NCBI GenBank assembly: GCA_041178345.1 | Contig: JBEGVQ010000093.1 | Location: forward strand, 14,496 to 78,495 | Length of the DNA: 64,000 nucleotides | Direction: 5' to 3' | Origin: Acidobacteriota bacterium | GTDB lineage: Bacteria; Acidobacteriota; Vicinamibacteria; Vicinamibacterales; UBA2999 | In this document: positions 25,225 to 44,461 of the stretch, one piece after another | Layout: every line of letters begins with the position of its first letter | How positions within the stretch are numbered: the first letter of the stretch is position 1 | Program-made: the position numbers and the translations under genes | The notes under the pieces: model-generated | Seen by the model: the letters and a program-made list of their open reading frames with translations, nothing else | Databases searched by the model: none | What the model was told of the DNA's origin: nothing

Positions 25225-26244
25225 TTATCGCGGGTGTGAAAAGGAGGCGGCGTTCGGGATCAACTGGAAGAACACCTCTTCGGGCGTGTTCCCGTGCCAG
25301 TGGCCGGCGAGCCTGGCGTAGCCGACCAGCGCCAGGAAGATCGCCGCCACCCCGATGGCGATCCGCGGCGCGGTGACCCGGCGACGGGTCCCGAGCGTCC
25401 GCATCTCCAGGGCGTCCTTCACCGGGCACGCGGTCACGCAGGTCAGGCAGCCGTTGCACTCGGGCGTGCGCACGGTCATCAGCCGGTCCACGGGAATCAA
25501 TGAGGGGCACGCCTTGGCGCACTTGCCGCAATCGATGCACGAGATCGGATCGCGCGTGATGCGCGTCGGGCTCAGCATCGAGACCAGGCCCATCAGCGCG
25601 CCGTACGGGCACAGGTACCGGCACCAGAAGTTCTTGGTCACCACCGACAACAGCACCAGGACGAGGCAGACCTGGATGGTCAGCCGGCCGGCGTCGCGGA
25701 AGAAATCGAGCATCTTCACGTCGGCGACCAGCCCGTAGGGGCTGGAGAGAAACGCGCTCAACGCCGGGACGGGCATGCTCACGACGGCATAGGCGAACAG
25801 GGCCAGGAGGATGTACTTCAGGCTGCGCAGCGGCAGGTCGGCCCAGCGCGGGAGCGTGAAGTTGCGGCCGAACATCTCGCGCCCGCCTTGCCAGAGCCAC
25901 TCGGAGATCGTGCCGATCGGGCACAGCCAACTGCAGAACGCCTTGCGGAACACCAGCGACATGGCCAGGAACGCCAGCAGCAGGAACAAGCCGGCGGGAT
26001 GCACCTCGGGAACGCTGGCGGTCAGCAGGAGGTACTTCAGGTTCATCAGGGAGGCCACCGGCAGCCAGCCCTCAACCCCGGGCGGGCGCGGGACGTAGAC
26101 GGTGGCCCCGGCTGTTTCGTAGAAACGAACCCAGAGGTAGAACCGCACGCCGATCCAGAGATTCAGGAGCAGGAACGCCACCTGCACGCTGTGCCGGACT
26201 AGCAGCGTCTGTTCAAGCGGGCGTTTGTCGTAGGCTCGGGCCAT
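25225..26244 (-). CDS. NapH/NosH/MauN-family membrane 4Fe-4S ferredoxin-type protein
   Basis: CSWLCPIGT and FWCRYLCPYGA membrane motifs, plus CIDCGKCAKACP and CNGCLTCVTACP clusters. Confidence 0.82.
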   Translation of the reverse strand: MARAYDKRPLEQTLLVRHSVQVAFLLLNLWIGVRFYLWVRFYETAGATVYVPRPPGVEGWLPVASLMNLKYLLLTASVPEVHPAGLFLLLAFLAMSLVFRKAFCSWLCPIGTISEWLWQGGREMFGRNFTLPRWADLPLRSLKYILLALFAYAVVSMPVPALSAFLSSPYGLVADVKMLDFFRDAGRLTIQVCLVLVLLSVVTKNFWCRYLCPYGALMGLVSMLSPTRITRDPISCIDCGKCAKACPSLIPVDRLMTVRTPECNGCLTCVTACPVKDALEMRTLGTRRRVTAPRIAIGVAAIFLALVGYARLAGHWHGNTPEEVFFQLIPNAASFSHPR

Positions 26245-26291
26245 CCCCCCGCATCTCCAGGACCACGATATCGGGCTCCTGGCGCCTGGCC

Positions 26292-26307
26292 TATGACACC
26301 GGTCATA
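26292..26307. promoter_or_regulatory. TATGAC-N4-GTCATA palindrome (Crp/Fnr-type operator candidate), copy 1
   Basis: TATGACACCGGTCATA, centred about 55 nt upstream of the NosH-like start codon. Confidence 0.55.
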
Positions 26308-26340
26308 TCGGCGAACGGACCGGCGGCGACGTGCCCTCGA

Positions 26341-29253
26341 CTACTTGAACCGTCGCTCGACGTGCCGGCGGATCGCGTCTTCGAACTCCGCGTCATGGTC
26401 TGCCTGGTAGACCATTGATGAACCGATTTCCGCCGCCAGGATCGCCGAGCGATACTTCGGCGACAGGTTCTGGTATCGGGTATTGAAGCGGGGGTCCTCA
26501 CGCAGGAGCGCCGGCAGGTGGCTCAGGATGACCTTGTCGAAGATCGGCTGGCTGGCGACGCCGGGGTTGGCCTGGAAGAACTCGAACAGGCGCTGGTAAT
26601 TCCGATTGATCTCGACCGAGATGTCGTCGGAGATCTCGGTCCAGGGCTTCCTGCTCGCGGCATGGCGCCGCACCAGCAAACGGGCCTCCTCCTCGGCACG
26701 CCGCTTCAGGATCGCCAGCACGTCGGCGACGTATTTCGGCTTGTTCTGGAGGAACTCCTCCTCGGTGAGCAGCAGGTTGGCGATGATCTCGTAGGACGAG
26801 GAGATCACGCCGCACTTGTTCGCCGAGGCGTCGCGCATGAGGAGGACGCCCTTCTTCTGCAGTTCCAGGCGGGCCGCCGGCGTGATGAACGAGTTGGCGC
26901 CTTCGATGATGACCTTCGCAGACGGGCTGCCGTCGGGCAGCAGGAAGCGCTGCCAGTTCTCGTCGTTGATCGTCTCGGGGCGGCCGCCGCCGGGAATGAA
27001 CAGGTCGGCCGGCACCGAGAACGGGAGTTCCCCGAACTGTCGCGACAGGTCGTCGATCGAGATCCACTCTTCGACCAGCCCCGCGGCGCTGCGCGTGACC
27101 TTGCGATACAGCACGCGCAGCCCGTCTTCCTTCGGCGAGCCCCGGAACAGCATGAACCCGCCGGGGTGCAGCGCCTCGGGACTGAATCCGTCAACGTCCT
27201 GCTCGAGCAGGATGCGCCGCAGTTGCGTGGGATCGGCGCCCGCCGGATCGAACAGCACCCCGGCGCCGTCCAGGATCAGCCGGATCTGCATCTTCGGGCA
27301 GAGGTCCAGCATGATCCGCATCGCGTTGCCGGCGACATCCCCATTCGGCCCGCCGGTGAACTTCACTGAGAAGGCGTCGCGCGTGATGTCGATGCCGATC
27401 TCGCGCATCGCGATCTCGGCGAACTTGACCACGCCGGTCGAGGTCACGCCGTACTCTTTGTGATTGATGCCGATGGTCTTCGACGACATCACGCCGGTGC
27501 CGAGAATGTAGCCCCGGCGCTTCGAGGTCAGGGCGATGTCCTCGATCATGTCATCGTGCATGTTCTCGTCGGGGCCGAGTTCGATCGGCTCGTCCTGCCG
27601 GTAGTAGTCCACGACCGCCGGGTTCTTCGCGACGCCCCCCTCGGTGACGAAGATGTCGAGGAAGGCGCTGAAGACATCGCGCTGCTTCTTGCGCAGCAGG
27701 CGATCGAGCACCGACCGCGGCTCCTTCGACACCGCCGAGGCATCCAGCAGCACCACGAGCTTCGACCCGCCTTCGTAGATGTCCTTGTTCTTCAAGTGCT
27801 GCGTGTGCGCCAGCACGAAGTTCTCCTTGAACAGCGTCGAGGCGTTAGTGAGGAAGTCATCCTGGGTGCGGCAGATCACCGTGCGCCAGCCGCCGCGCGC
27901 GATGTCGGAGAACCCGATGTGATACCCGAACGCGTGGCCGCCGAAGAAGAAGGTCACGCGGAAGGGCGTGCCGGACGGCAGGTCGGCGGTCGACACCTGC
28001 CCGAGGTCGGCGAGGTAGGCCGGGTCGAGCCGGAACGCGAGCGCCTGCTTCTCCTTCACGAAGAAATTGGTCTTCAGCGTGTGCTCGATGAAGGTCAGGC
28101 AGCAGTGAAACACGGTCCGGCGAATGGCATCGAGATGGGCGTGGCCGGTATCGTAGTCGGCCACGGCCTTGACGACGGTCGCCCGCAGCGCCGCGTAGGC
28201 CGCCTCGCGCCCCGCCACCGCCGGATCGAAGCGCAGTCGGAACAGGGCGACACACTGCGCCAGCAGTGGCGTGTTGGCGTAGATCGCGCCCTGCACTTCC
28301 TTCCAGTCGTAGCGATCGGGCTGCGCGTGCGCCAACTGCGTGTGGCAGAACGCCACGAACGCGCGGGTCAGCGAGGCGTCGTCGCCGCTCATCTGCCCGG
28401 TCGTCACGAACTCGCGATACTCAGGGGAAGTGGCGGTCAGGATCTGGGTGTTGAACAGTTCGCTCTGCAGCCGGTCGCGGAGGACGGCGGCGGTCTCCTG
28501 AATCTGGCCCTTGCGCTGCCGCACCGACATCGCAAACAGCGCATACGGCTGCGCGCCGGTCGAGACGTCGAACACGTCGGCGCTGCGGATGCCCACGTCA
28601 AAGCGGTGCAGCACCTCCACCACCTGCGCGACGTAGCCGGTGTGGGGCGGATTCGCGATCGCAAACAGCAGGCGCGCCTCGTTCGACCCGTCGGCGGCCG
28701 GCGTGAGATCGAAGTACAGACCATTCTGTGCCTCGCAGAGGTGCAGCATCCGGAGCGCTTCGACCACCCGGTCGCCCGGCGACACGCTCAGGTAGTCGGC
28801 GTGATTGAGCCAGAGGATGGACAGCAGCCGGTCAAACTCGGCGGGCGGGAATGACGGGTCGGACGCCAGCAGGGCTCTCGCCGGATCCTTCACGGCGCCG
28901 GGAATCTTCACGCCCGCCGCGAGCCCCGCCTGGATCTCCGCGTCGCTCTTGCACTTGAACGCGAACCGCTGGATTTCAAGCGTCTGCTCCAGGCCGGGCA
29001 TCGGCGCCGATGAATGCGCAAACATCGCGTAGGAGATCGGGCGCCCCACTCTCGCGCTTTTCGTCAGTCCCTCGTACAGGGACCCCGGCAAACTCCGCGT
29101 CGCCAGAATCAAGGTGTCCGGGCGGTCGGCCAGAATCAGATTCTGATTCGTCCGCAGCGTCTCGACCTCGCGCTCGAGGATGGCGATCGCGTCCGGCTCA
29201 CCGGCCATCGCCTTGAAGAAAGAATCGGCCATCGAATCTCGAAGCCACGTCAT
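26341..29253 (-). CDS. large NAD-specific glutamate dehydrogenase family protein
   Basis: About 970 aa. Catalytic block ..IARGGWRTV..HTQHLKNKDIYEGGSKLVV.., Rossmann KFTGGPNGDVAGN. Start at ATG 29253 avoids overlapping the upstream gene. Confidence 0.75.
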   Translation of the reverse strand: MTWLRDSMADSFFKAMAGEPDAIAILEREVETLRTNQNLILADRPDTLILATRSLPGSLYEGLTKSARVGRPISYAMFAHSSAPMPGLEQTLEIQRFAFKCKSDAEIQAGLAAGVKIPGAVKDPARALLASDPSFPPAEFDRLLSILWLNHADYLSVSPGDRVVEALRMLHLCEAQNGLYFDLTPAADGSNEARLLFAIANPPHTGYVAQVVEVLHRFDVGIRSADVFDVSTGAQPYALFAMSVRQRKGQIQETAAVLRDRLQSELFNTQILTATSPEYREFVTTGQMSGDDASLTRAFVAFCHTQLAHAQPDRYDWKEVQGAIYANTPLLAQCVALFRLRFDPAVAGREAAYAALRATVVKAVADYDTGHAHLDAIRRTVFHCCLTFIEHTLKTNFFVKEKQALAFRLDPAYLADLGQVSTADLPSGTPFRVTFFFGGHAFGYHIGFSDIARGGWRTVICRTQDDFLTNASTLFKENFVLAHTQHLKNKDIYEGGSKLVVLLDASAVSKEPRSVLDRLLRKKQRDVFSAFLDIFVTEGGVAKNPAVVDYYRQDEPIELGPDENMHDDMIEDIALTSKRRGYILGTGVMSSKTIGINHKEYGVTSTGVVKFAEIAMREIGIDITRDAFSVKFTGGPNGDVAGNAMRIMLDLCPKMQIRLILDGAGVLFDPAGADPTQLRRILLEQDVDGFSPEALHPGGFMLFRGSPKEDGLRVLYRKVTRSAAGLVEEWISIDDLSRQFGELPFSVPADLFIPGGGRPETINDENWQRFLLPDGSPSAKVIIEGANSFITPAARLELQKKGVLLMRDASANKCGVISSSYEIIANLLLTEEEFLQNKPKYVADVLAILKRRAEEEARLLVRRHAASRKPWTEISDDISVEINRNYQRLFEFFQANPGVASQPIFDKVILSHLPALLREDPRFNTRYQNLSPKYRSAILAAEIGSSMVYQADHDAEFEDAIRRHVERRFK

Positions 29254-29320
29254 GGCGGTATCCGTTCGCTGAAAGACTGCGTTGTATTCGTGTTGGGCGG
29301 GTGCTGGCCAACCACGAGCG

Positions 29321-31021
29321 TTAGCGCGAGTAGGCCACCTTGCCGCCAACGATGGTGTAGATCGCCCGCGTCGACGGGATCTCGTCCTCGGGCACGGTCA
29401 TGATGTCTTTCGACAGCACGGTGATGTCGGCCAGCTTGCCTACCGCCAGCGAGCCCTTGAGCGCTTCTTCCTTCGCGGCGTACGCGCCGTTCCAGGTGTA
29501 GGACTTGAGCGCTTCGGCGCGCGTCATCTTCTGGTCGCCGTAGAACACCGCGCCGTCGGTGGTCTTGCGGCTGACCGAGGCGTAGAAACTCGCCATCGGG
29601 TTGATCCGTTCCACCGGGACGTCGGTGCCGTTGGCGATGATCGCGCCGCTCTTGATCAGCTTCTGCCACACGTAGGCGCCTTCTTCCGCGCGCCCGGCGC
29701 CCAGCCGCGCCGGCACATACGGCGCGTCCGAGGTGGCGTGAATGCCCTGCATCACCGGGATCACGCCAAGCTGGCCAAAGCGCGGGATGTCGGCCGCGCT
29801 GATGTGCTGGGCGTGCTCGACGCGCCAGCGCAGGTCCTTCTGGTTCGGCCGCGACTTGAAGGCGCGCTCGTAGACATTGAGCACTTCGCGATTGGCGCGA
29901 TCGCCAATCGCGTGCACGCACAGCTGCACGTCGTGTTCGAGCGCGATCTGCGACGTCTCGGCGATGCTCTCGGGCGAGTTGGTCGGCAGCCCGACGCTCG
30001 CCGGCGAATCGCTGTACGGCGCGAGCATCCAGGCGCCGCGCGAACCAAGCGCGCCGTCGGCGGTGACCTTGATCGCGGCGATCGTCAGGTGGTGGTTGTT
30101 GAGGCCCACGGCGCGGTATTGCCCGAGCTTCGCGCGCAGGTTGTCGTTGCTGTCGCGCACCATCACCCACAACCGGATGCCCAGCGCGCCCTCGGACGCG
30201 GCTTGCTTGAGGAGATCGATGGTGGTGAAGTTCGCGCCGGCATCCTGGAAGCTCGTGATGCCGTGCTCGAGGCTGCCCTGCACCGCCAGCTGGATCTGCC
30301 GGCGCGCATCGGCGTCGCGTTCCGCGGCGGTCCTGGCGGAGCGCCACTGCTCGAGGGCGCCGCCAACGAGGCCCGACGCGGTTTCGCGCAACAGCCCGGT
30401 GGGACGGCCGGCCGCGTCCTTCAGGATCTCGCCGCCGCTCGGATTCATGGTTGCGCGCGTCAGGCCCGCGGCCGCCATGGCGTTCGCATTCACGAAGCTG
30501 GCGTGGCCGCTGGCATGCGTCAGCATCACCGGGTTGTTCGGTGAGACCTTGCTCAGCGCATCGTGGAGCGGAAAGCCTTCGACGTTCGGCTGCGGCACGC
30601 TCGCCCACTTCTCCTGGTGCCAGCCGCGCCCGAGAATCCAATCGCCCGGCTTCGCCTGCTTCGCGGCCTCGGCGACCATCGACACGATCTGGTCCCAGTC
30701 CCTGACGTCCATCAGGTCGAGCGTCATTTTCGACAGGCCGAAGCCCATGAAGTGGCCGTGGCTCTCGACCAGCCCGGGAATGGCCAGCTGGCCGCGCAGG
30801 TCGATGACCTGCGTGGCGGGGCCGACATACTGCTCGATGGCCTGGTTGGTGCCAACCGCGACAATGCGATCGCCACGGACGGCAATCGCCTGCGCCTCGG
30901 GCAGCGCGGCCTCGACGGTCACGATTTTACCGTTCTGCAGCACCAGGGCGGCCGGAGCGGGCCGACTCTGCCCGGAAAGGACCACGGTCGACACGGCCAA
31001 CAGGACGGCTAGATGTTTCAC
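29321..31021 (-). CDS. secreted amidohydrolase-family metallohydrolase (Amidohydro_3-like)
   Basis: Signal peptide, GLVESHGHF metal site, ..WRVEHAQH.., ..NGTDVPVE.. Confidence 0.85.
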   Translation of the reverse strand: MKHLAVLLAVSTVVLSGQSRPAPAALVLQNGKIVTVEAALPEAQAIAVRGDRIVAVGTNQAIEQYVGPATQVIDLRGQLAIPGLVESHGHFMGFGLSKMTLDLMDVRDWDQIVSMVAEAAKQAKPGDWILGRGWHQEKWASVPQPNVEGFPLHDALSKVSPNNPVMLTHASGHASFVNANAMAAAGLTRATMNPSGGEILKDAAGRPTGLLRETASGLVGGALEQWRSARTAAERDADARRQIQLAVQGSLEHGITSFQDAGANFTTIDLLKQAASEGALGIRLWVMVRDSNDNLRAKLGQYRAVGLNNHHLTIAAIKVTADGALGSRGAWMLAPYSDSPASVGLPTNSPESIAETSQIALEHDVQLCVHAIGDRANREVLNVYERAFKSRPNQKDLRWRVEHAQHISAADIPRFGQLGVIPVMQGIHATSDAPYVPARLGAGRAEEGAYVWQKLIKSGAIIANGTDVPVERINPMASFYASVSRKTTDGAVFYGDQKMTRAEALKSYTWNGAYAAKEEALKGSLAVGKLADITVLSKDIMTVPEDEIPSTRAIYTIVGGKVAYSR

Positions 31022-31079
31022 AACTGCTCCGAATCTGGTTCAGGTGAGGGTGCGATCAGTCTTCATGATAATGGAAAAA

Positions 31080-31095
31080 ATGACCGGCCAGTCAT
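31080..31095. promoter_or_regulatory. ATGAC-N6-GTCAT variant palindrome
   Basis: ATGACCGGCCAGTCAT, 10 nt upstream of copy 2. The spacing differs, so it is weaker. Confidence 0.3.
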
Positions 31096-31104
31096 CGAGG
31101 GCGT

Positions 31105-31120
31105 TATGACGGCGGTCATA
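31105..31120. promoter_or_regulatory. TATGAC-N4-GTCATA palindrome, copy 2
   Basis: TATGACGGCGGTCATA followed by CCC. Lies in the divergent region between the amidohydrolase and fasciclin genes, centred about 57 nt before the fasciclin ATG. Confidence 0.55.
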
Positions 31121-31169
31121 CCCAACGCCCTGCACATGACCTAGCGTGACGTGCTGAAGGAGGCGAGCC

Positions 31170-31664
31170 ATGAGGCAGCCACTGTCACGTACGAGTGCCG
31201 CTCTCGGAACCGCGGCCCTGATCGCCCTGCTGGTTCTCGTCCCCGTCCGCGCGCAAGGCACCAAGGACATCGTCGATGTCGCGGTCGCCGCCGGCTCGTT
31301 CAAGACGCTGGTCGCCGCCGTCCAGGCGGCCAACCTGGTGGACGTGCTCAAGCGGCCGGGACCGCTCACCGTGCTCGCCCCGACCGACGAGGCGTTCGCG
31401 AAGATCCCCAAGGCCGACCTTGATGCGCTGATGAAGGACAAGGTCAAACTGGCGGCCGTGCTGCAGTACCACGTGCTCGTCGGCAACGTCAGCGCCGCCG
31501 ACCTGAAAATGATGAAGGACTTCGGCACGGCGCAGGGCCAGCGCGTCCAGATTTCGAGCGTCGGCGCGGCACTCAAGATCAACCACGCCACCATCATCAA
31601 GGCCGACATCTCCGCCAGTAATGGCGTGATTCACGTCATCGACTCGGTGCTGCTGCCTAAGTAG
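31170..31664 (+). CDS. fasciclin (FAS1) domain protein, secreted
   Basis: ..DIVDVAVAAGSFKTLVAAVQAANLVDVL..LTVLAPTDEAFAK..NGVIHVIDSVLLP. Confidence 0.92.
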   Translation: MRQPLSRTSAALGTAALIALLVLVPVRAQGTKDIVDVAVAAGSFKTLVAAVQAANLVDVLKRPGPLTVLAPTDEAFAKIPKADLDALMKDKVKLAAVLQYHVLVGNVSAADLKMMKDFGTAQGQRVQISSVGAALKINHATIIKADISASNGVIHVIDSVLLPK

Positions 31665-31695
31665 CGGCAATCGCGATCGCGGCAAGTCCGCTGGA

Positions 31696-31711
31696 TATGA
31701 CGCCGGTCATA
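31696..31711. promoter_or_regulatory. TATGAC-N4-GTCATA palindrome, copy 3 (nos operon promoter region)
   Basis: TATGACGCCGGTCATA followed by CCC; 18 of 20 identical to copy 2 with flanks. Centred about 50 nt before ATG 31754. Confidence 0.6.
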
Positions 31712-31753
31712 CCCCCCTGCGACGGAATGCCGCACTCTGCGCAAGAGGGGTGA

Positions 31754-33706
31754 ATGGGCATTCGCACGGCGTTGCCGGATCTCGCGCACTGGAAGGCCCA
31801 GGTCAAGTGCCAGGCCGGATGTCCCGTGGCCACCGACGCCGGCCGCTATGTCCAGCTGATCGCCGACGGCCGGCCTGAAGAAGCCTTCCTGGTGGCGCGC
31901 GCGCCCAACCCGTTTGCCTCTGTGTGCGGCCGCGTCTGCGCCGCTCCGTGCGAAGACGCGTGCCGCCGCGGCGTGATCGACGCGCCGGTGTCCATTCGCG
32001 CCCTCAAGCGGCACGTCACCGAGCAGTTCGGCGTCGAGTCGATCCGGCCCGACACCCAGGCGCAACTGCTCACCACCGATACCCACGAGGGCAACCGTTA
32101 CACCGGCCACTTGCCGCTGCCGTTCTACCGGTCGGCCGAGGCCGTTGCGGCCGGCACGGCCCCTCGTTCGGGCCCGCGCCGCCGCATCGCGGTGATTGGC
32201 GCCGGGCCGGCGGGCATGGCGGCCGCGCACGACCTGGCGCTGCTCAATTACGACGTGACGGTGTTCGAGGCCGCCGCCGAGCCGGGTGGCATGATGCGGT
32301 TCGGCATTCCCGAATACCGGCTGCCCCGCACGCTGCTGCGCGCCGAGATCGACCGCATCGTCTCGCTCGGCGTGGACCTGCGGCTGAACACGCCGCTCTC
32401 GGCCGAGTTCGGCGTCGCCCAGCTGCGCGCGCAGGGCTTCGAGGCCGTGTTCCTGTCGGTGGGCGTGTCGCGTGGCCGCGACCTGCAGGCGCCAGGTGTT
32501 GAACTCGATGGCGTCATCAAGGCGGTGGACTACCTGCTCAACGTCAACCGCGGCTACCGCCTGGATCTTGGCCGCAAGGTGGTGGTCATCGGCGGCGGCT
32601 TCGTCGCCTTCGATGCGGCCCGCACCGCCCTGCGCGCCGGCCGCGACGAAGCGGCGCCCGCCGATCACGCCGAAACCGATGCGCGCGTGAAGGAAGCGCT
32701 GGATTCGGCGCGCGCCGCCATCCGCGGTGGCGCCACCGAAGTCACGGTGGTGTCACTCGAAGACTTCTCGGAGATGCCGGTGCTGCGCACCACGCAGGGC
32801 CACGAGGAGTTCGAGGAAGCCAAGCGCGAGGGCGTGCGGTTCATTACCCGCCGCGGCCCCAAGGAATTCAAGGGGACGTCTCACCTCGAGACCATTGCCC
32901 TGCGCGCCGTCACCTCGGTGTTCGACGCCAATGGCCGATTCGCCCCGCAGTTCGTGGATGAAGACATTCTCGATCTCGAGGCCGACACCTGCATTCTCGC
33001 GATCGGGCAGAACGCCGACCTGTCGTTCCTCACTGACGCCGACGGCGTGGCCCTGACGCCCGGCGGCACGATCAAGATCGATCCGCTCACGCTGGCCACA
33101 TCGGCACCCGGCCTCTACGCCGGTGGCGATGTCGCCTTCGGCCCCCGCAACCTGATCGAGGCGGTCGCCAACGGCAAGCGCGCCGCGCGCTCGATCCACG
33201 AATTCCTGGCGGGCCAGGAGGCCCGCATCGAAACGCACCTCGAGGTTGAAGCGCTCGTCACGTCGCGTTACCGGATGGTAGCGGGCTTCGAGCGCTTCGA
33301 CCGCGAGGCGCCTCCCACGCTCGACGTCGGGCGCCGCACCGGCATCACCGAGGTCGAAACCGGCTACGACGCCGCGGCCGCGCGCACGCAGGCGGCGCGG
33401 TGCCTGGTGTGCCACGTGCAGACCATCTACGACCCGGAACAGTGCGTGCTGTGCAACCGCTGTGTCGATATCTGTCCGGAGTACTGCCTGGCGTTCGTGC
33501 CGATCGACGCGCTCGACCTGCCAGCCGCGGAACGGGCCGCCGTCGAAGAGCGGGCGCAAGCCGGCGGCTTTCCGCTCGCCGCGTTGATCAAGGACGACGA
33601 CCGCTGCATCCGTTGCGGCCTGTGCGCCATCCGGTGCCCGACCGAGGCCATGACGATGGAGCGCTTCACCATCACCGAACGCTGGAACGGGAGTACGGCG
33701 TCATGA
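31754..33706 (+). CDS. GltD-like NAD(P)H-dependent FAD/FeS oxidoreductase with a C-terminal 2x[4Fe-4S] ferredoxin domain
   Basis: N-terminal Cys cluster (CQAGCP..CGRVCAAPCEDAC), dinucleotide folds IAVIGAGPAGMAAA and VVVIGGGFVAFDAA, then CVLCNRCVDICP and CIRCGLCAIRCP. Its stop overlaps the next start (ATGA). Confidence 0.85.
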   Translation: MGIRTALPDLAHWKAQVKCQAGCPVATDAGRYVQLIADGRPEEAFLVARAPNPFASVCGRVCAAPCEDACRRGVIDAPVSIRALKRHVTEQFGVESIRPDTQAQLLTTDTHEGNRYTGHLPLPFYRSAEAVAAGTAPRSGPRRRIAVIGAGPAGMAAAHDLALLNYDVTVFEAAAEPGGMMRFGIPEYRLPRTLLRAEIDRIVSLGVDLRLNTPLSAEFGVAQLRAQGFEAVFLSVGVSRGRDLQAPGVELDGVIKAVDYLLNVNRGYRLDLGRKVVVIGGGFVAFDAARTALRAGRDEAAPADHAETDARVKEALDSARAAIRGGATEVTVVSLEDFSEMPVLRTTQGHEEFEEAKREGVRFITRRGPKEFKGTSHLETIALRAVTSVFDANGRFAPQFVDEDILDLEADTCILAIGQNADLSFLTDADGVALTPGGTIKIDPLTLATSAPGLYAGGDVAFGPRNLIEAVANGKRAARSIHEFLAGQEARIETHLEVEALVTSRYRMVAGFERFDREAPPTLDVGRRTGITEVETGYDAAAARTQAARCLVCHVQTIYDPEQCVLCNRCVDICPEYCLAFVPIDALDLPAAERAAVEERAQAGGFPLAALIKDDDRCIRCGLCAIRCPTEAMTMERFTITERWNGSTAS

Positions 33707-34218
33707 GCGATGACAAGAAACCAACCGATCGACGCGACTTTCTGCTCAAGCTAGGCGCCGGCGCGGGCGTGGCCGCCATCACCGTCCAGGCCGGGGCGTC
33801 GCTGCGCTCGCTCGTGCCGAACGTGTCGTACGACGCGCCGACCACCGTGAAGCTCGGTCCACCGTCCGACTTCCCCGATGGCCTCAAGTTCCTCCCGGAC
33901 GAACGCGTGCTCGTGTTCCGCGAAGGCAACACGTTCCACGCTATTTCGGCCGTCTGCACGCACCTCGGATGCACCGTCCGGGCGGAGGCGTTGGCTTCCC
34001 CCCAATCCGTCGACGCCGGCGGTGCCTCCATCCGCCTGACCCATCGCTTCCTCTGTCCGTGTCACGGCTCTGAATACAAGGGCGACGGCACCAACGTGTC
34101 CGGCCCCGCGCCGAAGCCGCTGGCCTGGTACCGCCTGCTGCTCGCGCCCGACGATGGGCAACTGGTGATTGACCTCGCGGACGAAGTGGGCCGCGACTTC
34201 CGCCTGACGGTGGGGTGA
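33703..34218 (+). CDS. Rieske [2Fe-2S] protein with a Tat signal
   Basis: DRRDFLLKLGAGAG Tat motif. CTHLGCTV..CPCHGSEY with an insertion between the boxes. Confidence 0.9.
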   Translation: MSDDKKPTDRRDFLLKLGAGAGVAAITVQAGASLRSLVPNVSYDAPTTVKLGPPSDFPDGLKFLPDERVLVFREGNTFHAISAVCTHLGCTVRAEALASPQSVDAGGASIRLTHRFLCPCHGSEYKGDGTNVSGPAPKPLAWYRLLLAPDDGQLVIDLADEVGRDFRLTVG

Positions 34219-35567
34219 CTGTGATGCGCCTGCCCTCCTTGACCCGCACCAAGCCCGAGGCTCCCAACGTGCATGCGGAGCCGCTGTGGAGTTTGCGCCC
34301 CCAGTCGGACCGTGAAGCCGGCGATGCGGTGGTGTCGAACTTCATGCTGCACTGGTTCCCCGCCAAGATCAGCAAGGCGTCGATGGCGTGGAACTACTCG
34401 TTCTGGCTCGGCACCATTTCCGGGGCGCTCTTCTTCCTGACGATTCTGTCGGGCCTGCCGCTGCTGTTTCTCTACGTGCCGTCGGTGGAGCGCGCCTACC
34501 AGTCGGTCAAGGACATCGAGTTCGTGATCACGTTCGGTTCGTGGATTCGCGCGGTGCACCGCATCTCGGCGCACCTGATGGTGATCGTCGTCGCCTTGCA
34601 CCTGGTCCGCGTGTTCCTGACCGGCGCCTACAAGAACGGCGTCGGCCGCGGGCAGCAGCGCGAAATCAACTGGGTGATCGGCGTCGTGATGTTCCTCACC
34701 ACGCTGTTCCTCTCGTTCACCGGTTACCTGCTGCCCTGGGACCAACTGGCCTTCTGGGCGGTTACGGTCGGCACCAACATCGCCTCCTCCATTCCCGCGA
34801 TTGGCCCGGCCGTCCGCGAACTGATGATCGGCGGCCGCAACATCGACCAGGCGACGCTGATCCGCTTCTACGTGTTGCACGTCGTCTTCCTGCCCGGCCT
34901 GCTGGCGGTGCTGTTCGCGTATCACATGTGGCGCGTGCGCAAGGACGGCGGCCTGGCCCGCGCCGACCACGAGACCGTGCTGGAAGAGCTGCGCACCACC
35001 GAGGTGGTGCCGACCAAGACCTACACCTTGCTGGGCGTCGCCCGCGGCACGGCGCCGACGGTGACGGCGCGGACGCTCGAGGCGGCCAACACCACCGTCA
35101 ACGCCGTGCCGGACCTGACGCGCCGCGCGCTGATTGCCGTCCTCGGCACCATTGCCGTCGTCAGCATCATGTCGGTGTTCATCGCCTCGCCGCTCGAGGA
35201 GCCGGCCAACGCGCTGATCACGCCCAACCCGGCGAAGGCGCCGTGGTACTTCCTGTGGCTCCAGGAAATCGTCACCGACACCACCATTCGGATCGGTTCG
35301 TTCACGCTGAACGGGGCGTTCGTGGGCGGCGTGATCCTGCCCGGGCTGCTGGTCGGACTCATGACCTTCTGGCCGTGGCTCGATCGTTCGTCCCATCTGG
35401 CGGCCGGCGTCTGGCTGCCGCGCGACCGCCGCCGGCAGAACATCGTGTTCCTGCTGATCGTGCTGTTCGTGCTGGTGCTGACGTTCGTCGGCATGGTCCT
35501 GCGCGGGCCGTATTGGTACTTCTACTGGCCGTGGGAGGCCTGGCCCGAGATTCCCGGAAGGATCTGA
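34215..35567 (+). CDS. cytochrome b subunit (long form, 450 aa)
   Basis: GTGA overlap with the Rieske stop. Typical b-type helices with His pairs; APWYFLWLQE motif. Confidence 0.9.
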   Translation: MTVMRLPSLTRTKPEAPNVHAEPLWSLRPQSDREAGDAVVSNFMLHWFPAKISKASMAWNYSFWLGTISGALFFLTILSGLPLLFLYVPSVERAYQSVKDIEFVITFGSWIRAVHRISAHLMVIVVALHLVRVFLTGAYKNGVGRGQQREINWVIGVVMFLTTLFLSFTGYLLPWDQLAFWAVTVGTNIASSIPAIGPAVRELMIGGRNIDQATLIRFYVLHVVFLPGLLAVLFAYHMWRVRKDGGLARADHETVLEELRTTEVVPTKTYTLLGVARGTAPTVTARTLEAANTTVNAVPDLTRRALIAVLGTIAVVSIMSVFIASPLEEPANALITPNPAKAPWYFLWLQEIVTDTTIRIGSFTLNGAFVGGVILPGLLVGLMTFWPWLDRSSHLAAGVWLPRDRRRQNIVFLLIVLFVLVLTFVGMVLRGPYWYFYWPWEAWPEIPGRI

Positions 35568-35568
35568 G

Positions 35569-36792
35569 ATGGAGAACCGCACCTCATCTCCGTATCCGCG
35601 GATCGACCGGTTGGTGCTGGCGCTCGTCGGCGTCACGCTGGTAATCGGCACCGCGCTGTTCATGTGGAGCGACCGCGCCCACGACTGGCGCTACTACCAG
35701 GCCGAGTTCCGGCGGATGGTGGCCGAGAAGTTTGGGGATGACAAGGCGGCGCTTCTCCCGTCGGGCGTGCGGCAGGTCTGGGCGGCCGAGCTGGCGCGCG
35801 CCGATCGCTGCATCACCTGCCACGAGGCGATCGCCTACAAGGGCTTCGAGGAGGCCGAGCATCCCTACCGCACGCATCCGCTCGAACCCCTGCAGCTTCA
35901 CCCGGTCGAAGCTTACGGCTGCACCTCGTGCCACGGCGGCCAGGGCTGGGCCATCGACACGGCGGCGGCGCACGGCGAGGTCGCGCACTGGGAGGAGCCG
36001 CTGCTGAGCCGGACCTTGGGCGAGGAATACACGCTCGCCGGCAACAAGAACGCGTTGATGCAGATGAACTGCAACACCTGCCACCGCTACGACCGCGAGA
36101 CCAAGGGCGCCGAGGCCATCAACCTGGCCAAGCGGCTGATCAACGACAAGGGCTGCCGGGCCTGTCACGTGATCAACGGGTTCGGCGGCACGATTGGCCC
36201 CGACCTCACGACCGTCGGCGAGAAGGCGCCCGAACAGTACGACATGAGCCGGTTGTCGGGCCAGCGCACCGCGTTTGCGTGGCACATGGCGCACTTCAAG
36301 GACCCGCGCGCGCTCAGCGAGGGCACCGTCATGCCGAACTTCAACTTCAGCACCGAACAGGCGCAGGCGCTGTCGATGCTGATGCTGTCGTGGCGGCGGC
36401 ACGAGGTGCCGGCGCGGTTTGTCTCGGGCGCGCCCCGCACGGACCCCCGCAGCGCCGAGGAGCTGAAGGCCGAGGCGGACATGCGGACCGGCCCTGGCGG
36501 GTGGTTCGTGCAGACCGGTTGTTTCGTGTGCCACTCGATCTCGGCGCTCGGGGTCAGGAGCCCGGCGCAGATCGGGCCCGACCTGTCGAATGCCGTCGAG
36601 GACGTGCAAAGCCGGTTCGGCGTGACGATCGACGCGTTCATCGCCAACCCCACCGGCACGATGAGCGTGGTGCTGTCGCGCCAGATCATCCTGACACCCG
36701 AGCAGAAGGAAGTGGCGATCCAGAAGTTGCGCGAGGCGTTTGCGGAGTACCAGCGCCAGCGTGAAACGGCCGCGGCCGCGATTTCCAAATAG
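35569..36792 (+). CDS. membrane-anchored pentaheme c-type cytochrome
   Basis: N-terminal TM helix. CITCH, CTSCH, CNTCH, CRACH, CFVCH. Starts 1 nt after the cyt b stop. Confidence 0.85.
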   Translation: MENRTSSPYPRIDRLVLALVGVTLVIGTALFMWSDRAHDWRYYQAEFRRMVAEKFGDDKAALLPSGVRQVWAAELARADRCITCHEAIAYKGFEEAEHPYRTHPLEPLQLHPVEAYGCTSCHGGQGWAIDTAAAHGEVAHWEEPLLSRTLGEEYTLAGNKNALMQMNCNTCHRYDRETKGAEAINLAKRLINDKGCRACHVINGFGGTIGPDLTTVGEKAPEQYDMSRLSGQRTAFAWHMAHFKDPRALSEGTVMPNFNFSTEQAQALSMLMLSWRRHEVPARFVSGAPRTDPRSAEELKAEADMRTGPGGWFVQTGCFVCHSISALGVRSPAQIGPDLSNAVEDVQSRFGVTIDAFIANPTGTMSVVLSRQIILTPEQKEVAIQKLREAFAEYQRQRETAAAAISK

Positions 36793-36807
36793 TGAGGAGG
36801 CAGTCTT

Positions 36808-38661
36808 ATGGACCGAACGAATCGTGTGGCGTGGTCGAGGGCATCCGCCCTGTTGGTGCTGGCGCTCGTCGCCAGCCAGTGCACGCCGAGCCAGCCCGCC
36901 TCGCGGCGCGGCGGCAGCGGCGTGCAGTCGGACGCCGCCGTGGCGGCGCTCAAGACCTACGTGGCCCCGGGTGACCTCGACGAGTACTACATGTTCTCGT
37001 CGGGCGGGCATTCCGGCCAGATTTACGTCTACGGATTGCCCTCGATGCGGCACCTCTCGACCATCCCCGTCTACACCCCCTACCCGGCGACCGGCTACGG
37101 TTTCGATGATGACAGCAAGAAGATGCTGGGCGACCTGACGTGGGGTGACGCGCATCACCCGGCGCTGTCGGAAACCAAGGGCGACTACGACGGCCGCTGG
37201 CTGTTCATCAACGAGATGAACGGGCGCATTGCCCGCATCGATCTGCGCGACTTCAAGACCAAGCAGATCCTGGGGCCGGTGCCGAACCTGCATGGCAACC
37301 ACGCCTCGTCGTTCGTCACCCCGAACACCGAGTACGCGATGATGGCCACCCGCTTCTCCCGGCCCGTGCCGAACCGGGTCGTCGGCATCGACAAGTACGC
37401 GACCGAGTACAAGGGCATCATCGCCGGCGTCAAGATCGAACCGGCCTCGGGCGAGATGTCGCTGGCGTGGCAGATCCTGATGCCGCCGTTCGACTACGAC
37501 CTGGGCGACGCCGGCAAGCTGGCGTCCGACGGCTGGATGTTCTTCACCTCGTACAACACCGAGCGGGCCACCGGCAAGCTCGAGGTCACCGCCTCGCAAC
37601 GCGACCAGGACTACATTGCCGCGGTTGACTGGCGCGCCGCGGAGAAGGCGATCGCCGAGGGCAAGTTCGACACCATCGGCGGCGTCAAGGTGATCGACCC
37701 CAAGAAGGTGCCCGGCATCGTCTACCTGCTGCCCTGCGGCAAGTCGCCGCACGGCGTCGACGTCTCGCCCGACGGCAAGTGGATCATCGGCTCGGGCAAG
37801 CTCCAGGGCGTCACCACCGCGTTCAACTTCGAGAAGATCCAGACCGCGATTCGCAACAAGGACTTCATCGGCGAAGAAGACGGCATCCCGGTGCTGAAGT
37901 ACGAGTCGATCAAGGACGCCGAGGTCGCGGTCGGCCTGGGCCCGCTGCACACGCAGTTCGGCCCCGATGGCTGGGCCTACACCTCGCTGTTCGTCGACAG
38001 CGCGATCGCGAAATGGAAGCTCGGCACGTGGGAAGTCGTCGACAAGGCGCCGATGTCGTACTCGATCGGCCACCTGGCCGCGGCCGAAGGCGACACCGTC
38101 AGCCCTGACGGCAACTACCTGGTCGGCCTCAACAAGCTGTCGCACGGCCGCCACCTGAGCGTCGGGCCGTCGCAGCCCGAGTCGTCACAGCTGCTCGACA
38201 TCACCGAAGAGAAGATGAAGCTGCTCTACGACGCCTTCACCGAACCCGAGCCGCACTACGCGCAGATCATCAAGGCCGACAAGATCAAGGCCATCGAGGT
38301 CTATCCGAAAGAGGAAAACAAGCACCCCATGGCGGTGTGGGATCTCAAGGACGCCGGGGTGACCCGCAATGGCAAGAACGTGCTGGTCAAGATGATCGCC
38401 GTGCGCTCGACGCTGACGCCGACCTCGTTCGAGGTGACCGCGGGCGACCAGGTCACGGTGGCCGTGACCAACATCGAGCAGACCACCGACGAACTGCACG
38501 GCTTCGGGCTGCTCGACTACAACATCAACCTGGTCATCGACCCGGGTGAAACCAAGACCGTCACCTTCACCGCGAAGAAGAGCGGCGTGTTCGCCTACTA
38601 CTGCACCAACTTCTGTTCGGCGCTTCACCAGGAGATGCAGGGCTACATGATCGTCAAGTGA
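36808..38661 (+). CDS. nosZ: nitrous oxide reductase, clade II (Sec-type) form
   Basis: GDAHHP CuZ region, beta-propeller body, C-terminal CuA site YYCTNFCSALHQEMQGYM. The N-terminal signal has no twin-arginine motif. nosB follows. Confidence 0.95.
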   Translation: MDRTNRVAWSRASALLVLALVASQCTPSQPASRRGGSGVQSDAAVAALKTYVAPGDLDEYYMFSSGGHSGQIYVYGLPSMRHLSTIPVYTPYPATGYGFDDDSKKMLGDLTWGDAHHPALSETKGDYDGRWLFINEMNGRIARIDLRDFKTKQILGPVPNLHGNHASSFVTPNTEYAMMATRFSRPVPNRVVGIDKYATEYKGIIAGVKIEPASGEMSLAWQILMPPFDYDLGDAGKLASDGWMFFTSYNTERATGKLEVTASQRDQDYIAAVDWRAAEKAIAEGKFDTIGGVKVIDPKKVPGIVYLLPCGKSPHGVDVSPDGKWIIGSGKLQGVTTAFNFEKIQTAIRNKDFIGEEDGIPVLKYESIKDAEVAVGLGPLHTQFGPDGWAYTSLFVDSAIAKWKLGTWEVVDKAPMSYSIGHLAAAEGDTVSPDGNYLVGLNKLSHGRHLSVGPSQPESSQLLDITEEKMKLLYDAFTEPEPHYAQIIKADKIKAIEVYPKEENKHPMAVWDLKDAGVTRNGKNVLVKMIAVRSTLTPTSFEVTAGDQVTVAVTNIEQTTDELHGFGLLDYNINLVIDPGETKTVTFTAKKSGVFAYYCTNFCSALHQEMQGYMIVK

Positions 38662-38703
38662 TTTGAGCGGTGACAGTTGAAGAGTTGACAGTTGGCAGTT
38701 TAG

Positions 38704-39363
38704 GTGGTCACGATGCAGGCGTTCCTCCAACGCGCGAATCGGTTCTTGGACATGCCGATCGGTCTTCCGGCGAGAATCATGCTCCTTGCCGCGACGGCTC
38801 TGATCGTGGCCACCTATTTCTTCCCCCTCTGGAACCTGACGATGTTCGCACCGCAGTATCCAGAGGGGCTTCGCCTCGACATCTACTCCTACACGCTGGT
38901 CGGCGGCAACAACGGCCAGGACGTGAAAGAGATCAACGTGCTCAACCACTACATCGGCATGCAGGACCTGGTGAACGAATCGTTCACCGAGTTCCAGTGG
39001 ATGCCGTTCGTGATCGGCGCGCTCGGCCTGCTGGTGCTGCGGGCCGCCGTCCACGGCACGGTCGTCGCGCTGGTCGACGTCACCATGCTGTTCGTCTACT
39101 TCGGCGCCTTCTCGCTGTGGTCGTTCGGCTACAAGCTGTATCGCTACGGCCACGACCTGTCGCCGGAAGCGGCGGTGCAGGTGCCGCCGTTCATGCCGCC
39201 GATGTTCGGCGGCGCGCAGATCGCCAACTTCGAGGTCTATTCCTATCCGCGGCCCGCGACCTACGCGATGGCCGGCGTGATCGCCCTGTTGCTGGCGGCG
39301 CTGTTCCTGACCTGGTGGCAACGGCCCACCGGCGAGCTCCCGGTCGCGGCGGATCGGGGATGA
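38704..39363 (+). CDS. nosB: NosB-like integral membrane protein of clade II nos clusters
   Basis: Polytopic membrane protein directly after nosZ and before nosD. The start may instead be ATG 38713. Confidence 0.7.
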   Translation: MVTMQAFLQRANRFLDMPIGLPARIMLLAATALIVATYFFPLWNLTMFAPQYPEGLRLDIYSYTLVGGNNGQDVKEINVLNHYIGMQDLVNESFTEFQWMPFVIGALGLLVLRAAVHGTVVALVDVTMLFVYFGAFSLWSFGYKLYRYGHDLSPEAAVQVPPFMPPMFGGAQIANFEVYSYPRPATYAMAGVIALLLAALFLTWWQRPTGELPVAADRG

Positions 39364-39367
39364 CGCC

Positions 39368-40747
39368 GTGACAGCCGTCGCCGTGATGCTGCTGTTGGGC
39401 CTGCTGCAGGTCACAGATGCTATGCCGCCAGGCGCCGGCGTCGAGGGGCGGCCGGCCGCGGCGCACGCCTCGCCCCTCCAGGCCCTGGTCGACCGCGCAC
39501 AACCCGGCGACCGCGTCGTGGTGCCGGCGGGCACGTACGACGGAGACCTGCTGATCGATCGCCCGATCACCCTGCGCGGCACGGGTCGTCCGACCCTGCG
39601 CGGGTCGGGCACCGGCAGCGTGGTCCGCGTGCGTGCCCCCGGCGTCATCATCGAGGGCTTCGACATCGACGGGCGCGGCCAGGGCGACCTGGGCCGCGAC
39701 ACCTCGGGCATTCACGTGGCCGCGCCGCGCGTCACGATCCGTGATTGCCGCATCCGTCAGGCCTTGTTCGGCATCTACCTGCGCGAGGCGGATGACGCGG
39801 TGGTCGAGACCACGACGGTGACCGGCATTCCCGGCCGCGATCCCGGCGAGAACGGCAGCGGCATCCACGTCTGGAACAGCCAGCGCTTCCGCCTGGCCGG
39901 CAACACCATCGCCGGCGCCCGCGACGGCTTCTACATCCAGTCGTCATCGCACGGCCTGGTGCGCGGCAACCGCGCCAGCGATCTCCGTTACGGCCTCCAC
40001 TACATGTTCTCGGACGACAATGTCTTCGAAGACAACGTGTTCGCGCGCGGCGCCGCCGGCGCGGCGCTGATGTACTCGAACCGCATGACGTTCCGGCGCA
40101 ACCAGTTCGTGCACAACCGCGGCTTTGCCTCGGTGGGCCTCCTGTTGAAGGCATGCGATGACGTGGTGGCCGAAGACAACCTGATCGCCGACAACGCGCG
40201 CGGGGTCTTTCTCGAAGGTTCGTATCGGAATCGGTTCCGTCGCAACCTGGTGGCGATGTCGGACATGGCGCTGGTGATCTACGACTCGAGCGGCGCCAAC
40301 CACTTCGCGGGCAACGCCTTCGTCGGCAACCTGACGCCGCTGTCGCTGTCGGGCAAGCGCACTGATACCGTCTTCGACGGCAACTACTGGTCCGACCACG
40401 GCGTGCCCGATCTCGATGGCGACGGCGTGAGCGACCGGCCGTACCGGCTGTCGAATGTCTTCGATCACCTGCGTGGCAACCTGACCGCCGCCGACCTGTT
40501 CTCGCGTAGTGTCGCGGCGTCGGCGTTGGGCGCGGCGGAACGGGCCTTTCCCATCCTCGACCCCATTCCGGTGATCGACGCGCATCCGCTGGTGCGCCCG
40601 CCGGTCCTCGACGCGGTGCCGATGCCGGCGTCGGTCGCTTCGTCGCAATCGGTCGCCAGCACCGCCCCGCCCCTGCTGCTCCTGCTGGTCGGCGGCGGCG
40701 TGCTTGCGGCAGGCGGGCGCTCCTGGGTGAAAGGCAGGCGATCGTGA
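39368..40747 (+). CDS. nosD: nitrous oxide reductase maturation protein NosD (parallel beta-helix)
   Basis: Repeated beta-helix units (..GIHVW..GNTI..GFYIQ..GNRA..YGLHYMFS..N.F..). Position in the nos operon. Confidence 0.9.
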   Translation: MTAVAVMLLLGLLQVTDAMPPGAGVEGRPAAAHASPLQALVDRAQPGDRVVVPAGTYDGDLLIDRPITLRGTGRPTLRGSGTGSVVRVRAPGVIIEGFDIDGRGQGDLGRDTSGIHVAAPRVTIRDCRIRQALFGIYLREADDAVVETTTVTGIPGRDPGENGSGIHVWNSQRFRLAGNTIAGARDGFYIQSSSHGLVRGNRASDLRYGLHYMFSDDNVFEDNVFARGAAGAALMYSNRMTFRRNQFVHNRGFASVGLLLKACDDVVAEDNLIADNARGVFLEGSYRNRFRRNLVAMSDMALVIYDSSGANHFAGNAFVGNLTPLSLSGKRTDTVFDGNYWSDHGVPDLDGDGVSDRPYRLSNVFDHLRGNLTAADLFSRSVAASALGAAERAFPILDPIPVIDAHPLVRPPVLDAVPMPASVASSQSVASTAPPLLLLLVGGGVLAAGGRSWVKGRRS

Positions 40748-41643: not shown

Positions 41644-42047
41644 CGAAGTGGGTGCTGGCGGCGGCCCTGGTCATGGGCGGGTGTGCCGGCGGTCCGCCGG
41701 GACCGGCCGCCGTCGGACTGGGCGAAGACGCCTGCGCGGGCTGCCGCATGACGATCGTGTCGCGCGCGACGGCCGCGCAGATCGTCCGCGCCGGCGACGA
41801 GGCGGTGTTCTTCGACGACCTCGGGTGCCTGCGCGACTACCTGCGCCAGCGACCGCTGCCTGGCGACGCCGTGGTCTACGTCGCCGACCATCGCTCGGGC
41901 GGGTGGGTGAACGCGCGCGCGGCGCTGTTTACCAGGACCACTGCGTCCACGCCCATGGCGTCGGGCCTGCTCGCCCATGCCGACACGACCTCTCGAGATG
42001 CCGACCCGGCGGCGGCCGGCGGCAGCCAGGCGACGGTGATGCCATGA
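41640..42047 (+). CDS. nosL: NosL copper-chaperone lipoprotein
   Basis: Lipobox LVMGGC; DACAGCRM metal motif. Confidence 0.85.
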   Translation: MTKWVLAAALVMGGCAGGPPGPAAVGLGEDACAGCRMTIVSRATAAQIVRAGDEAVFFDDLGCLRDYLRQRPLPGDAVVYVADHRSGGWVNARAALFTRTTASTPMASGLLAHADTTSRDADPAAAGGSQATVMP

Positions 42048-44212: not shown

Positions 44213-44286
44213 CCGGTGTCCTTCGCGGGCGGGTCCCCCAGGCGTTCGCGCCTGACCCGATGCTAGCCGACGGTCGGAACGGGTAA

Positions 44287-44302
44287 CATGATCGACGTCA
44301 TA
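44287..44302. promoter_or_regulatory. degenerate copy of the palindrome (CATGAT-N4-GTCATA), copy 4
   Basis: Right half perfect, left half with 2 mismatches. Same 3' flank (TCGG) as copy 1. About 80 nt upstream of the hemerythrin-Crp operon start. Confidence 0.4.
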
Positions 44303-44461
44303 TCGGCCCCGGGGGCCGTCCTTATGCCCTTCGACTGTTCTTATCGTGCGCGCCACGGAGCCAATGCGTGCCTGACCGCGTGCCCCACCACGGCCGAGGT
44401 CGGTGGCTTCCAGTTCGCGCGCGTTGAACAGGGCAGCGGCGCGCCACCGGCCGATTCCCGC

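Follow-up and report, generated by a model that had tools for sequence, protein, structure and literature searches.

A conserved palindrome at the nitrous oxide reductase genes of Acidobacteriota is a candidate operator of a new DNA-specificity variant of the Crp/Fnr family

The palindrome TATGAC-N4-GTCATA, found in front of the nitrous oxide reductase (nos) operon of a member of the Acidobacteriota, is very probably the binding site of the neighbouring Crp/Fnr-type activator. The palindrome is real and strongly conserved, and in all probability it is an operator at the N2O reductase genes of Acidobacteriota for a Crp/Fnr protein of new DNA specificity. The site, its place in the promoter and the recognition helix of the regulator are kept in more than a hundred related loci. 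The window analysed here is a stretch of 64,000 nt of the contig JBEGVQ010000093.1 (positions 14,496-78,495, forward strand; assembly GCA_041178345.1, Acidobacteriota, UBA2999) with a G+C content of 67%. The host is a freshwater/soil Acidobacterium. We propose that the palindrome is the operator of the regulator encoded at 42964-43674, which would serve as a class II activator at four promoters of the window. Taken as a whole, this explanation is in our judgement likely to be correct. A dimer of the regulator would sit on the palindrome with the dyad centre about 41.5 bp before the start of transcription, overlapping the -35 region, and from there it would recruit RNA polymerase in the manner of FNR, CRP and DNR at promoters of class II. 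The four promoters driven in this way would be those of the ten-gene nos operon, the fasciclin gene, the NapH-like gene and the hemerythrin-crp operon, the last of which would be subject to positive autoregulation through a weaker site. The conservation of the palindrome, the promoter geometry, the genomic linkage and the co-variation of recognition helix and site are observed directly.

The nos operon occupies positions 31754-42883 on the forward strand. Its genes were assigned with Pfam and NCBIfam models, and their order is the same in the related loci L001-L080. The number of genes that the earlier note had given for the operon was confirmed, with about ten genes for a GltD-like FeS flavoprotein, a Rieske protein, cytochrome b, a multihaem cytochrome c, NosZ, a membrane protein, NosD, NosF, a NosL-like protein and NosY. 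NosZ (36808-38661, forward strand) is of the Sec-type clade II (TIGR04246). The 135-aa ORF between NosF and NosY (41640-42047, forward strand) has a weak match to NosL (E=8e-4, below the cut-off), and the true start of the 411-aa ‘NosY’ ORF probably lies about 130 codons after its first GTG. On the 5′ side of the operon are the gene of an exported fasciclin-domain protein of 164 aa (31170-31664, forward strand; PF02469, E=1e-37), an amidohydrolase gene (29321-31021, reverse strand), a GDH-like gene (26341-29349, reverse strand) and a gene encoding a membrane ferredoxin of the NapH/NosH/MauN type with 339 aa (25225-26244, reverse strand; Fer4_5, with a match to the TIGR02163 napH family of E=1e-19, which is below the cut-off). 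On its 3′ side, the reverse strand carries the gene of a di-iron hemerythrin-domain protein of 176 aa (43682-44212; PF01814, with E=1e-24 for TIGR03652 and E=7e-12 for the DnrN model, both below their cut-offs), which corresponds to the C-terminal domain only of RIC/YtfE/DnrN. This gene ends 7 nt before the regulator gene, crp.

The three perfect copies of the palindrome claimed at 26292-26307, 31105-31120 and 31696-31711 were recovered by a pattern search, which found exactly three in the 64 kb. A chance origin had been called unlikely, and indeed not one copy arose in 100 shuffles of the window that preserved its dinucleotides. The degenerate copy described before the hemerythrin gene, CATGATCGACGTCATA at 44287-44302, has two mismatches, and its centre lies 82.5 nt from the ATG at 44212, close to the 80 nt originally given. 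The distances reported between the centres of the perfect copies and the start codons, 55 nt for the NapH-like gene, 57 nt for the fasciclin gene and 50 nt for the GltD-like head of the nos operon, were reproduced. The similarity of the second and third copies including their flanks was also found as described, TATGACG[G/C]CGGTCATACCC being common to both. All strong copies, namely the three perfect ones and that at 44287, are intergenic, which agrees with the claimed absence of the motif from coding sequence. Permitting up to two mismatches in the window search added the copy at 44287 and a chance-level match at 44807.

A scan of the window with a position weight matrix (PWM) gave four hits of 20.8-27.9 bits, each with a -10 hexamer facing the expected gene. 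The operator of the nos promoter, P_nos (TATGACGCCGGTCATA, 31696-31711; 27.2 bits), is a perfect copy with its predicted centre near -41.5. The -10-like hexamer CACTCT (31733-31738, forward strand) follows it after 21 bp, and transcription is predicted to start near 31745, which would give a nos leader of only about 9 nt. The perfect operator of the fasciclin promoter (TATGACGGCGGTCATA, 31105-31120; 27.9 bits) is accompanied by the hexamer TAGCGT (31142-31147, forward strand; predicted start near 31154), and the perfect operator of the NapH/NosH-like gene (TATGACACCGGTCATA, 26292-26307; 25.4 bits) by TATCGT (26265-26270, reverse strand; predicted start near 26258). The weaker operator of the hemerythrin-crp operon (TATGACGTCGATCATG on the reverse strand, 44287-44302; 20.8 bits) is a candidate autoregulatory site with the hexamer TAGCAT (44260-44265, reverse strand) and a predicted start near 44253. 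In many relatives this position is taken by a perfect copy, compared with the two mismatches in the window.

Several further candidates in the window were rejected. The next hit of the PWM scan, at 4084 with 15.1 bits, has no -10 at the right distance, and a TGAC-N4-GTCA sequence at 47102 scores below 2.1 bits. The earlier note had also pointed to a variant with an N6 spacer, ATGACCGGCCAGTCAT at 31080-31095. The variant is present, but it was rejected as a functional site: it is missing at the same place in L003, the closest locus with the same gene order as the window, and the N6 spacing stands at background level in the relatives, with 1 match in 1.68 Mb vs 120 for N4. The operator at 44287 contains the first ATG of a 390-aa ORF (44288-45460, forward strand), whose GC3 is coding-like and which matches no Pfam or NCBIfam family. 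As no -10 stands at a suitable distance on the side of the ORF, the latter is probably not a target.

Conservation in relatives, a check set by the earlier note, was assessed in 160 related loci with a total length of 1.68 Mb; the motif is kept, its spacer is free, and it is confined to promoters. The nosZ loci number 80, one genome per species with NosZ, and come nearly all from Acidobacteriota (Vicinamibacterales, Thermoanaerobaculia and others). The perfect palindrome occurs in 82 copies in the 160 loci. Each of 179 control palindromes of the same half-site composition (179/179) had 0 copies in the same 1.68 Mb, and spacers of 0-3 and 5-10 gave 0 copies each. Of the nosZ loci, 57 extend 150 nt or more beyond the 5′ end of the GltD-like head gene, and 29 of these have a perfect site there, 41 a site with up to one mismatch and 47 a site with up to two. 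Most of these sites are located 42-61 nt from the ATG. The site together with a -10 precedes the GltD-like head gene in 50/59 species-level loci, and it is absent in about 9 of the 59. In L044 and L055, which do not have the GltD/Rieske/cytochrome b module, the site is found directly before nosZ, which implies that it tracks the head of the operon and not one particular gene.

When 41 nos promoters were aligned on the site, the 12 half-site positions and a downstream cA.c.T were the only conserved elements, with the spacer and the flanks being free. The PWM built from 159 sites reads (T/c)ATGA(C/t)-N4-(G/a)TCAT(A/g), and its two half-sites are equally conserved as an exact dyad. The TGA-N6-TCA core, claimed as the mark of Crp/Fnr-family sites, is plainly visible in it, with T3, G4 and A5 conserved at 99% or more. 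These properties bear on the idea that the palindrome is an alternative sigma element, or a REP/MITE-like small repeat, without a regulator. The half-site TATGAC does resemble the -35 sequence TTGACA, but an exact dyad with equally conserved halves and a free spacer, unconserved flanks and the lack of copies in coding DNA or at other spacings speak against such elements. They were rejected on these grounds, and we leave this idea next to no probability.

The promoter geometry was derived from 75 sites that precede different genes. The hexamer TAnnnT is found at a fixed gap of 21 bp (or 22 bp) on the gene side of 74 of them: its A and T fall at +23/+27 after the site in 59/75 cases, and a further 15 have them at +24/+28. 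In the direction opposite to the gene, the corresponding A and T counts are 6 and 4. The assignment of this hexamer as the -10 presumes that TAnnnT is the housekeeping promoter hexamer of Acidobacteriota. The dyad centre lies 29.5 bp before the first base of the hexamer, and the usual distance from the last base of a hexamer to the start is 7 nt. The 21-bp gap after the 16-bp site and these 7 nt thus place the centre of the site at about -41.5. Class II promoters have FNR, CRP and DNR at this very position. A prediction of sigma-70 promoters with a consensus -35 found none in the region 26200-31800, to which three of the four sites (NapH-like, fasciclin and nos) belong. On the predicted starts, these promoters have the make-up of class II activator-dependent promoters, with a site near -41.5 over a poor -35. 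They resemble the class II promoters of E. coli FNR and CRP in the dyad about 41.5 bp before the start, in the 21-bp gap to the -10 and in the lack of a good -35.

Activation, not repression, is the mode of action that we infer. The same regulator could act mainly as a repressor, with the operator blocking RNA polymerase, and some arrangements at crp would suit this: the site covers the crp start codon in the group of L141, and it lies 8 bp before TACACT in L102, L110, L111 and L120. The promoters of the structural genes, in contrast, with their fixed 21 bp to the -10, have activator geometry, and the lack of a predicted consensus -35 in 26200-31800 also disfavours a repressor. We therefore consider a mainly repressing regulator unlikely.

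The fasciclin gene is preceded by the site in the window and in L001, L003, L009, L017, L075 and L078/L134. In L001, the NapH-like and fasciclin genes are divergent, 112 bp apart and have one common site, TATGACACCGGTCATA, flanked by TATCGT and TACGCT, each at +22 on its own side. In the window, this pair is separated by the GDH-like and amidohydrolase genes (26341-31021), and the NapH-like gene and the fasciclin gene each have a copy of their own. The copy at 26292 is identical to that of L001, including the spacer, and the copy at 31105 is identical to that of L003. L003 has an amidohydrolase gene in the same place, and its contig ends before any GDH-like gene could show. The block of GDH-like and amidohydrolase genes looks inserted between ancestrally divergent napH-like and fasciclin genes, with an operator on both sides in the window. 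The earlier note had placed both fasciclin and the amidohydrolase in the regulon. The recurrent sites and the copies in L001 and L003 indicate that fasciclin is a recurrent member, so this part of the claim stands. The amidohydrolase is dropped: because the divergent pair of L001 shares one site and the block between the two genes is seen only in the window (the amidohydrolase also in L003), it is probably only a neighbour, and its count as a control gene is 0/1. The sequence CATTTT, one base off-register, is present on the amidohydrolase side of the window's site, which leaves weak divergent activation of the amidohydrolase a small probability.

Targets were counted across the loci as genes with a site of up to two mismatches and a correctly spaced -10 within 350 nt upstream. 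Besides the GltD-like head of nos, this applies to the genes of the hemerythrin (40/52), a TIGR04053 radical-SAM/SPASM protein related to AhbD and NirJ (9/11), a small MerR/HTH_17 protein (5/5), fasciclin (4/6), NapA (3/3), the NapH-like protein (3/7), the quinol-type NO reductase (qNor, NorB; 1/1, in L144) and a ScdA_N-NnrS fusion (1/1, in L027). The neighbouring genes taken as controls gave 0/3 for a multicopper oxidase and 0/1 for CopG. Sites are also found before CopD-like, DUF3079 and methyltransferase genes in some loci. The TIGR04053 protein, which is related to the haem b synthase AhbD and to NirJ, is among the most consistent targets (L133:6786-7889 and 10 other loci), and its gene often adjoins crp. 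The MerR/HTH_17-type protein has 78-87 aa and is encoded between the operator and the GltD-like gene in L029 (4065-4298), L057, L059, L061 and L066, mostly Thermoanaerobaculia, so that it is the first gene of the nos operon in those loci. No nir gene was seen in the related loci, and hcp did not occur among the annotated target genes of the loci.

The set of targets (nos, a DnrN-like hemerythrin, qNor, NnrS and NapA) comprises denitrification and NO-stress genes, and the regulon looks like one of the DNR/NnrR type that responds to N-oxides. The genes nos, nor, nnrS and dnrN form the core of the NO-responsive regulons of DNR, NnrR, NsrR, NorR and HcpR (PMC1274295). With nos, nor, nnrS and a dnrN-like gene among the targets, an N-oxide or anoxia signal is the best inference from the regulon content. 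The signal would thus be NO or the loss of O2, and it would possibly be sensed with the help of the co-transcribed di-iron hemerythrin.

The link between the site and the regulator is seen most directly in 80 metagenome contigs (368 kb) that were picked by similarity to the regulator alone, with nos being ignored. They contain 62 sites with up to one mismatch, nearly all of them flanking crp/hemerythrin, whether nos is nearby or not. In 45 contigs the sequence upstream of crp is 900 nt or longer; 27 of them have the site there with up to one mismatch and 33 with up to two, and in several others it lies immediately downstream. A second, often perfect site is a recurrent feature of the nosZ loci, where it precedes the hemerythrin-crp operon at about 7.5 kb downstream of the start of nosZ. 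In four loci (L084:1795-2184, L086, L087 and L090) a 130-aa exported protein without a family match is encoded between the operator and hemerythrin-crp, and the site precedes it in 4/6 cases.

Two variants of the arrangement at crp were observed. In L141 (2399-2414), and also in L142, L145, L114, L157, L155 and L143, hemerythrin and crp are divergent, and the last base of the site, TATGAT-N4-GTCATA, is the A of the crp ATG, with TACTCT at +22 on the hemerythrin side. The TATGAT half could double as the -10 of a leaderless crp mRNA, so that binding would activate hemerythrin and shut off crp. In L102 (5107), L110 (2540), L111 (1183) and L120 (5464), the sequence TATGAC-N4-ATCATG has TACACT just 8 bp downstream and the crp start soon after. 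The centre of this site would lie near -28, a repressor-like position for crp itself.

The regulator itself (42964-43674, reverse strand) has 236 aa when read from a GTG; most relatives have 229-230 aa, and 103 orthologues were collected. Its membership in the Crp/Fnr family is evident from the cNMP-binding-type beta-barrel (PF00027, E=8e-21) and the Crp-type winged helix-turn-helix (PF13545, E=1.5e-13), and in a Foldseek search with its AF2 model (pLDDT 88.8) the top hits were all Crp/Fnr proteins. Superposition of the whole chain was obtained with apo-DNR only (3dkw, TM 0.71), the others of the top 50 chains giving 0.37-0.53; this likeness is weak evidence, as it hinges on the predicted domain arrangement. 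In sequence, the regulator is nearer to the actinobacterial CRP/GlxR (E=9e-26) than to DNR (E=4e-17). No named subfamily fits it, as every NCBIfam equivalog is far below its cut-off, and among its 4739 relatives at E <= 1e-20 the best 120 bear generic names where they are named.

The recognition helix (TTIETTIRIMSR, 43051-43086, reverse strand) contains I199, E200 and R204, and the sequence GTTIETxIRIMSRW is near-invariant in the 103 orthologues. The helix had been read as ETTIR, and the sequence is indeed TTIETTIR. In the HMMER alignment, I-E-T-T-I-R of the regulator is placed against R-E-T-V-N-K of Mtb CRP. We take I199, E200, I203 and R204 to be the counterparts of R180, E181, G184 (FNR S212) and R185 of E. 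coli CRP. The Glu/Arg pair of the E181/R185 type, E200 and R204, is invariant in the alignments. The position of Arg180, by which CRP reads a G, is occupied by Ile, and the base is an A. The A at the third position (T-A-TGAC), a base that is G for CRP and T for FNR, would thus go with Ile at the equivalents of both CRP Arg180 and FNR Ser212. Other features of CRP and FNR are likewise lacking. GAV and FPA align with the GEL and RTS motifs of Mtb CRP, which are presumably its cAMP contacts. There is no FNR-type Cys cluster: the regulator has two Cys (112 and 169), none near the N-terminus, and C112 alone of the two is conserved (82%). No invariant His or Cys for NO or O2 sensing was found among the 103 orthologues, H127 (68%) and C112 being the nearest to it.

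Loci with a different helix give a natural comparison. Beside nos, L062 and L069 encode a paralogue with 28% identity and a TAREVxSR helix, and the sites next to it are CGTGAC-N4-GTCACG and TGTGAC-N4-GTCACA. These sites and a third one in L042 have TACAGT, TATAAC and TACACT at the same +22. The occurrence of an Arg helix with G and of an Ile helix with A at position 3 (Rodionov numbering, the A2 of TATGAC) suggests a natural specificity swap, in a small sample of two regulators and three promoters. This pairing extends the R180-G3 correlation of the Crp/Fnr family described by Rodionov et al. 2005 (PMC1274295). A TGTGAC-N4-GTCACA inside nosZ of L010 was rejected as an operator because it is in coding sequence and has no -10.

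The linkage, the site before the regulator's own operon and the co-variation with the helix support the claim that the palindrome is the operator of the adjacent regulator, which would bind to it physically. Another factor, either a Crp/Fnr paralogue encoded elsewhere or a dimeric helix-turn-helix protein of another family, could bind instead, with the adjacent regulator being merely co-regulated. Adjacency is in fact not universal: L001, the closest relative (NosZ 95% identical), keeps the sites and has no orthologue of the regulator within 10 kb, and many nos loci have no crp within 10 kb. Against this, the site flanks the regulator family in contigs chosen by the regulator alone, helix and half-site co-vary, and the TGA-N6-TCA core with the -41.5 geometry is the signature of Crp/Fnr proteins. 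Binding by another factor thus seems to us improbable, and the neighbouring regulator is retained as the candidate.

One further proposal concerns the signal. The regulator may have no sensing cofactor of its own and may read O2 or NO via the di-iron hemerythrin, which is co-transcribed or divergent in most loci. We regard this as doubtful. If it were true, Acidobacteriota of soil and freshwater would have a two-protein Crp/Fnr sensor as the master switch of N2O reduction.

The kind of system is known, and this member and its recognition code are undescribed as far as searched. DNR of Pseudomonas aeruginosa (DnrD of P. stutzeri) and NnrR of alpha-proteobacteria are NO-responsive Crp/Fnr activators of nir, nor, nos, nnrS and dnrN. 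They are alike in belonging to the same superfamily, in having no FNR Cys cluster and in the overlap of their regulons (nos, norB, nnrS and a dnrN-like hemerythrin). The box is different, with ATGAC-N4-GTCAT here instead of TTGAT-N4-ATCAA or TTGCG-N4-CGCAA. DNR and FNR helices carry E-x-x-S-R, whereas this regulator has I-E-T-x-I-R, and the full site, TATGAC-N4-GTCATA, likewise departs from the FNR box TTGAT-N4-ATCAA. DNR senses through haem, and no conserved haem-ligand candidate was seen in this regulator.

The closest published box is TTGACnnnnGTCAA of HcpR1, which is one base per half-site off, with T at the third position there and A here. HcpR1 of delta-proteobacteria and cyanobacteria recognises wyTTGACnnnnGTCAArw. 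Genes resembling those of hemerythrins, ferredoxins and cytochromes c are frequent in predicted HcpR regulons, and that of Synechocystis includes norB (PMC1274295). HcpR1 has Ser or Pro at the CRP-180 position vs Ile in this regulator, and the TTGAC-N4-GTCAA boxes of HcpR1 precede hcp/frdX, whereas the main target here is a clade II nos operon. Clade II nos genes, which lack NosR, are likewise under Crp/Fnr proteins in Campylobacter (NssR) and Wolinella (NssA/B/C). For Nitrosophilus labii (Campylobacterota), Crp/Fnr control of nosZ of this clade has been proposed with TTGA-N6-TCAA boxes (PMC11539149). All of these differ in the box (TTAAC-N4-GTTAA or TTGA-N6-TCAA), the phylum and the helix, which has A180/Q181 in NssR (PMC1274295). 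Full-text searches of the literature for the motif returned no paper with this box and matched only the TTGAC boxes of HcpR1 and Anr.

Acidobacteriota are among the most abundant soil bacteria. The first culture evidence of N2O reduction by a member of this phylum was reported for Luteitalea pratensis in 2026, and its nosZ transcripts were higher in anoxia regardless of N2O, with no regulator being named (PMC13122619). Soil, sediment and river metatranscriptomes contain short contigs that are 88-95% alike to the fasciclin and GltD-like genes (31000-33000 of the window), so that near relatives of the two genes seem to be transcribed in the environment. These contigs come from relatives and cover coding DNA only, and no 5′ ends were found in them.

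The operator, the promoter architecture and the candidate regulator together provide a testable model for how the acidobacterial N2O sink would be switched on. With the PWM, the regulon can be looked up in any MAG of Acidobacteriota. The predicted determinants of specificity, Ile at the CRP-180 position with A at position 3, would extend the Crp/Fnr recognition code, and the fasciclin, TIGR04053 radical-SAM and CopD-like proteins are candidates for new functions in N-oxide respiration.
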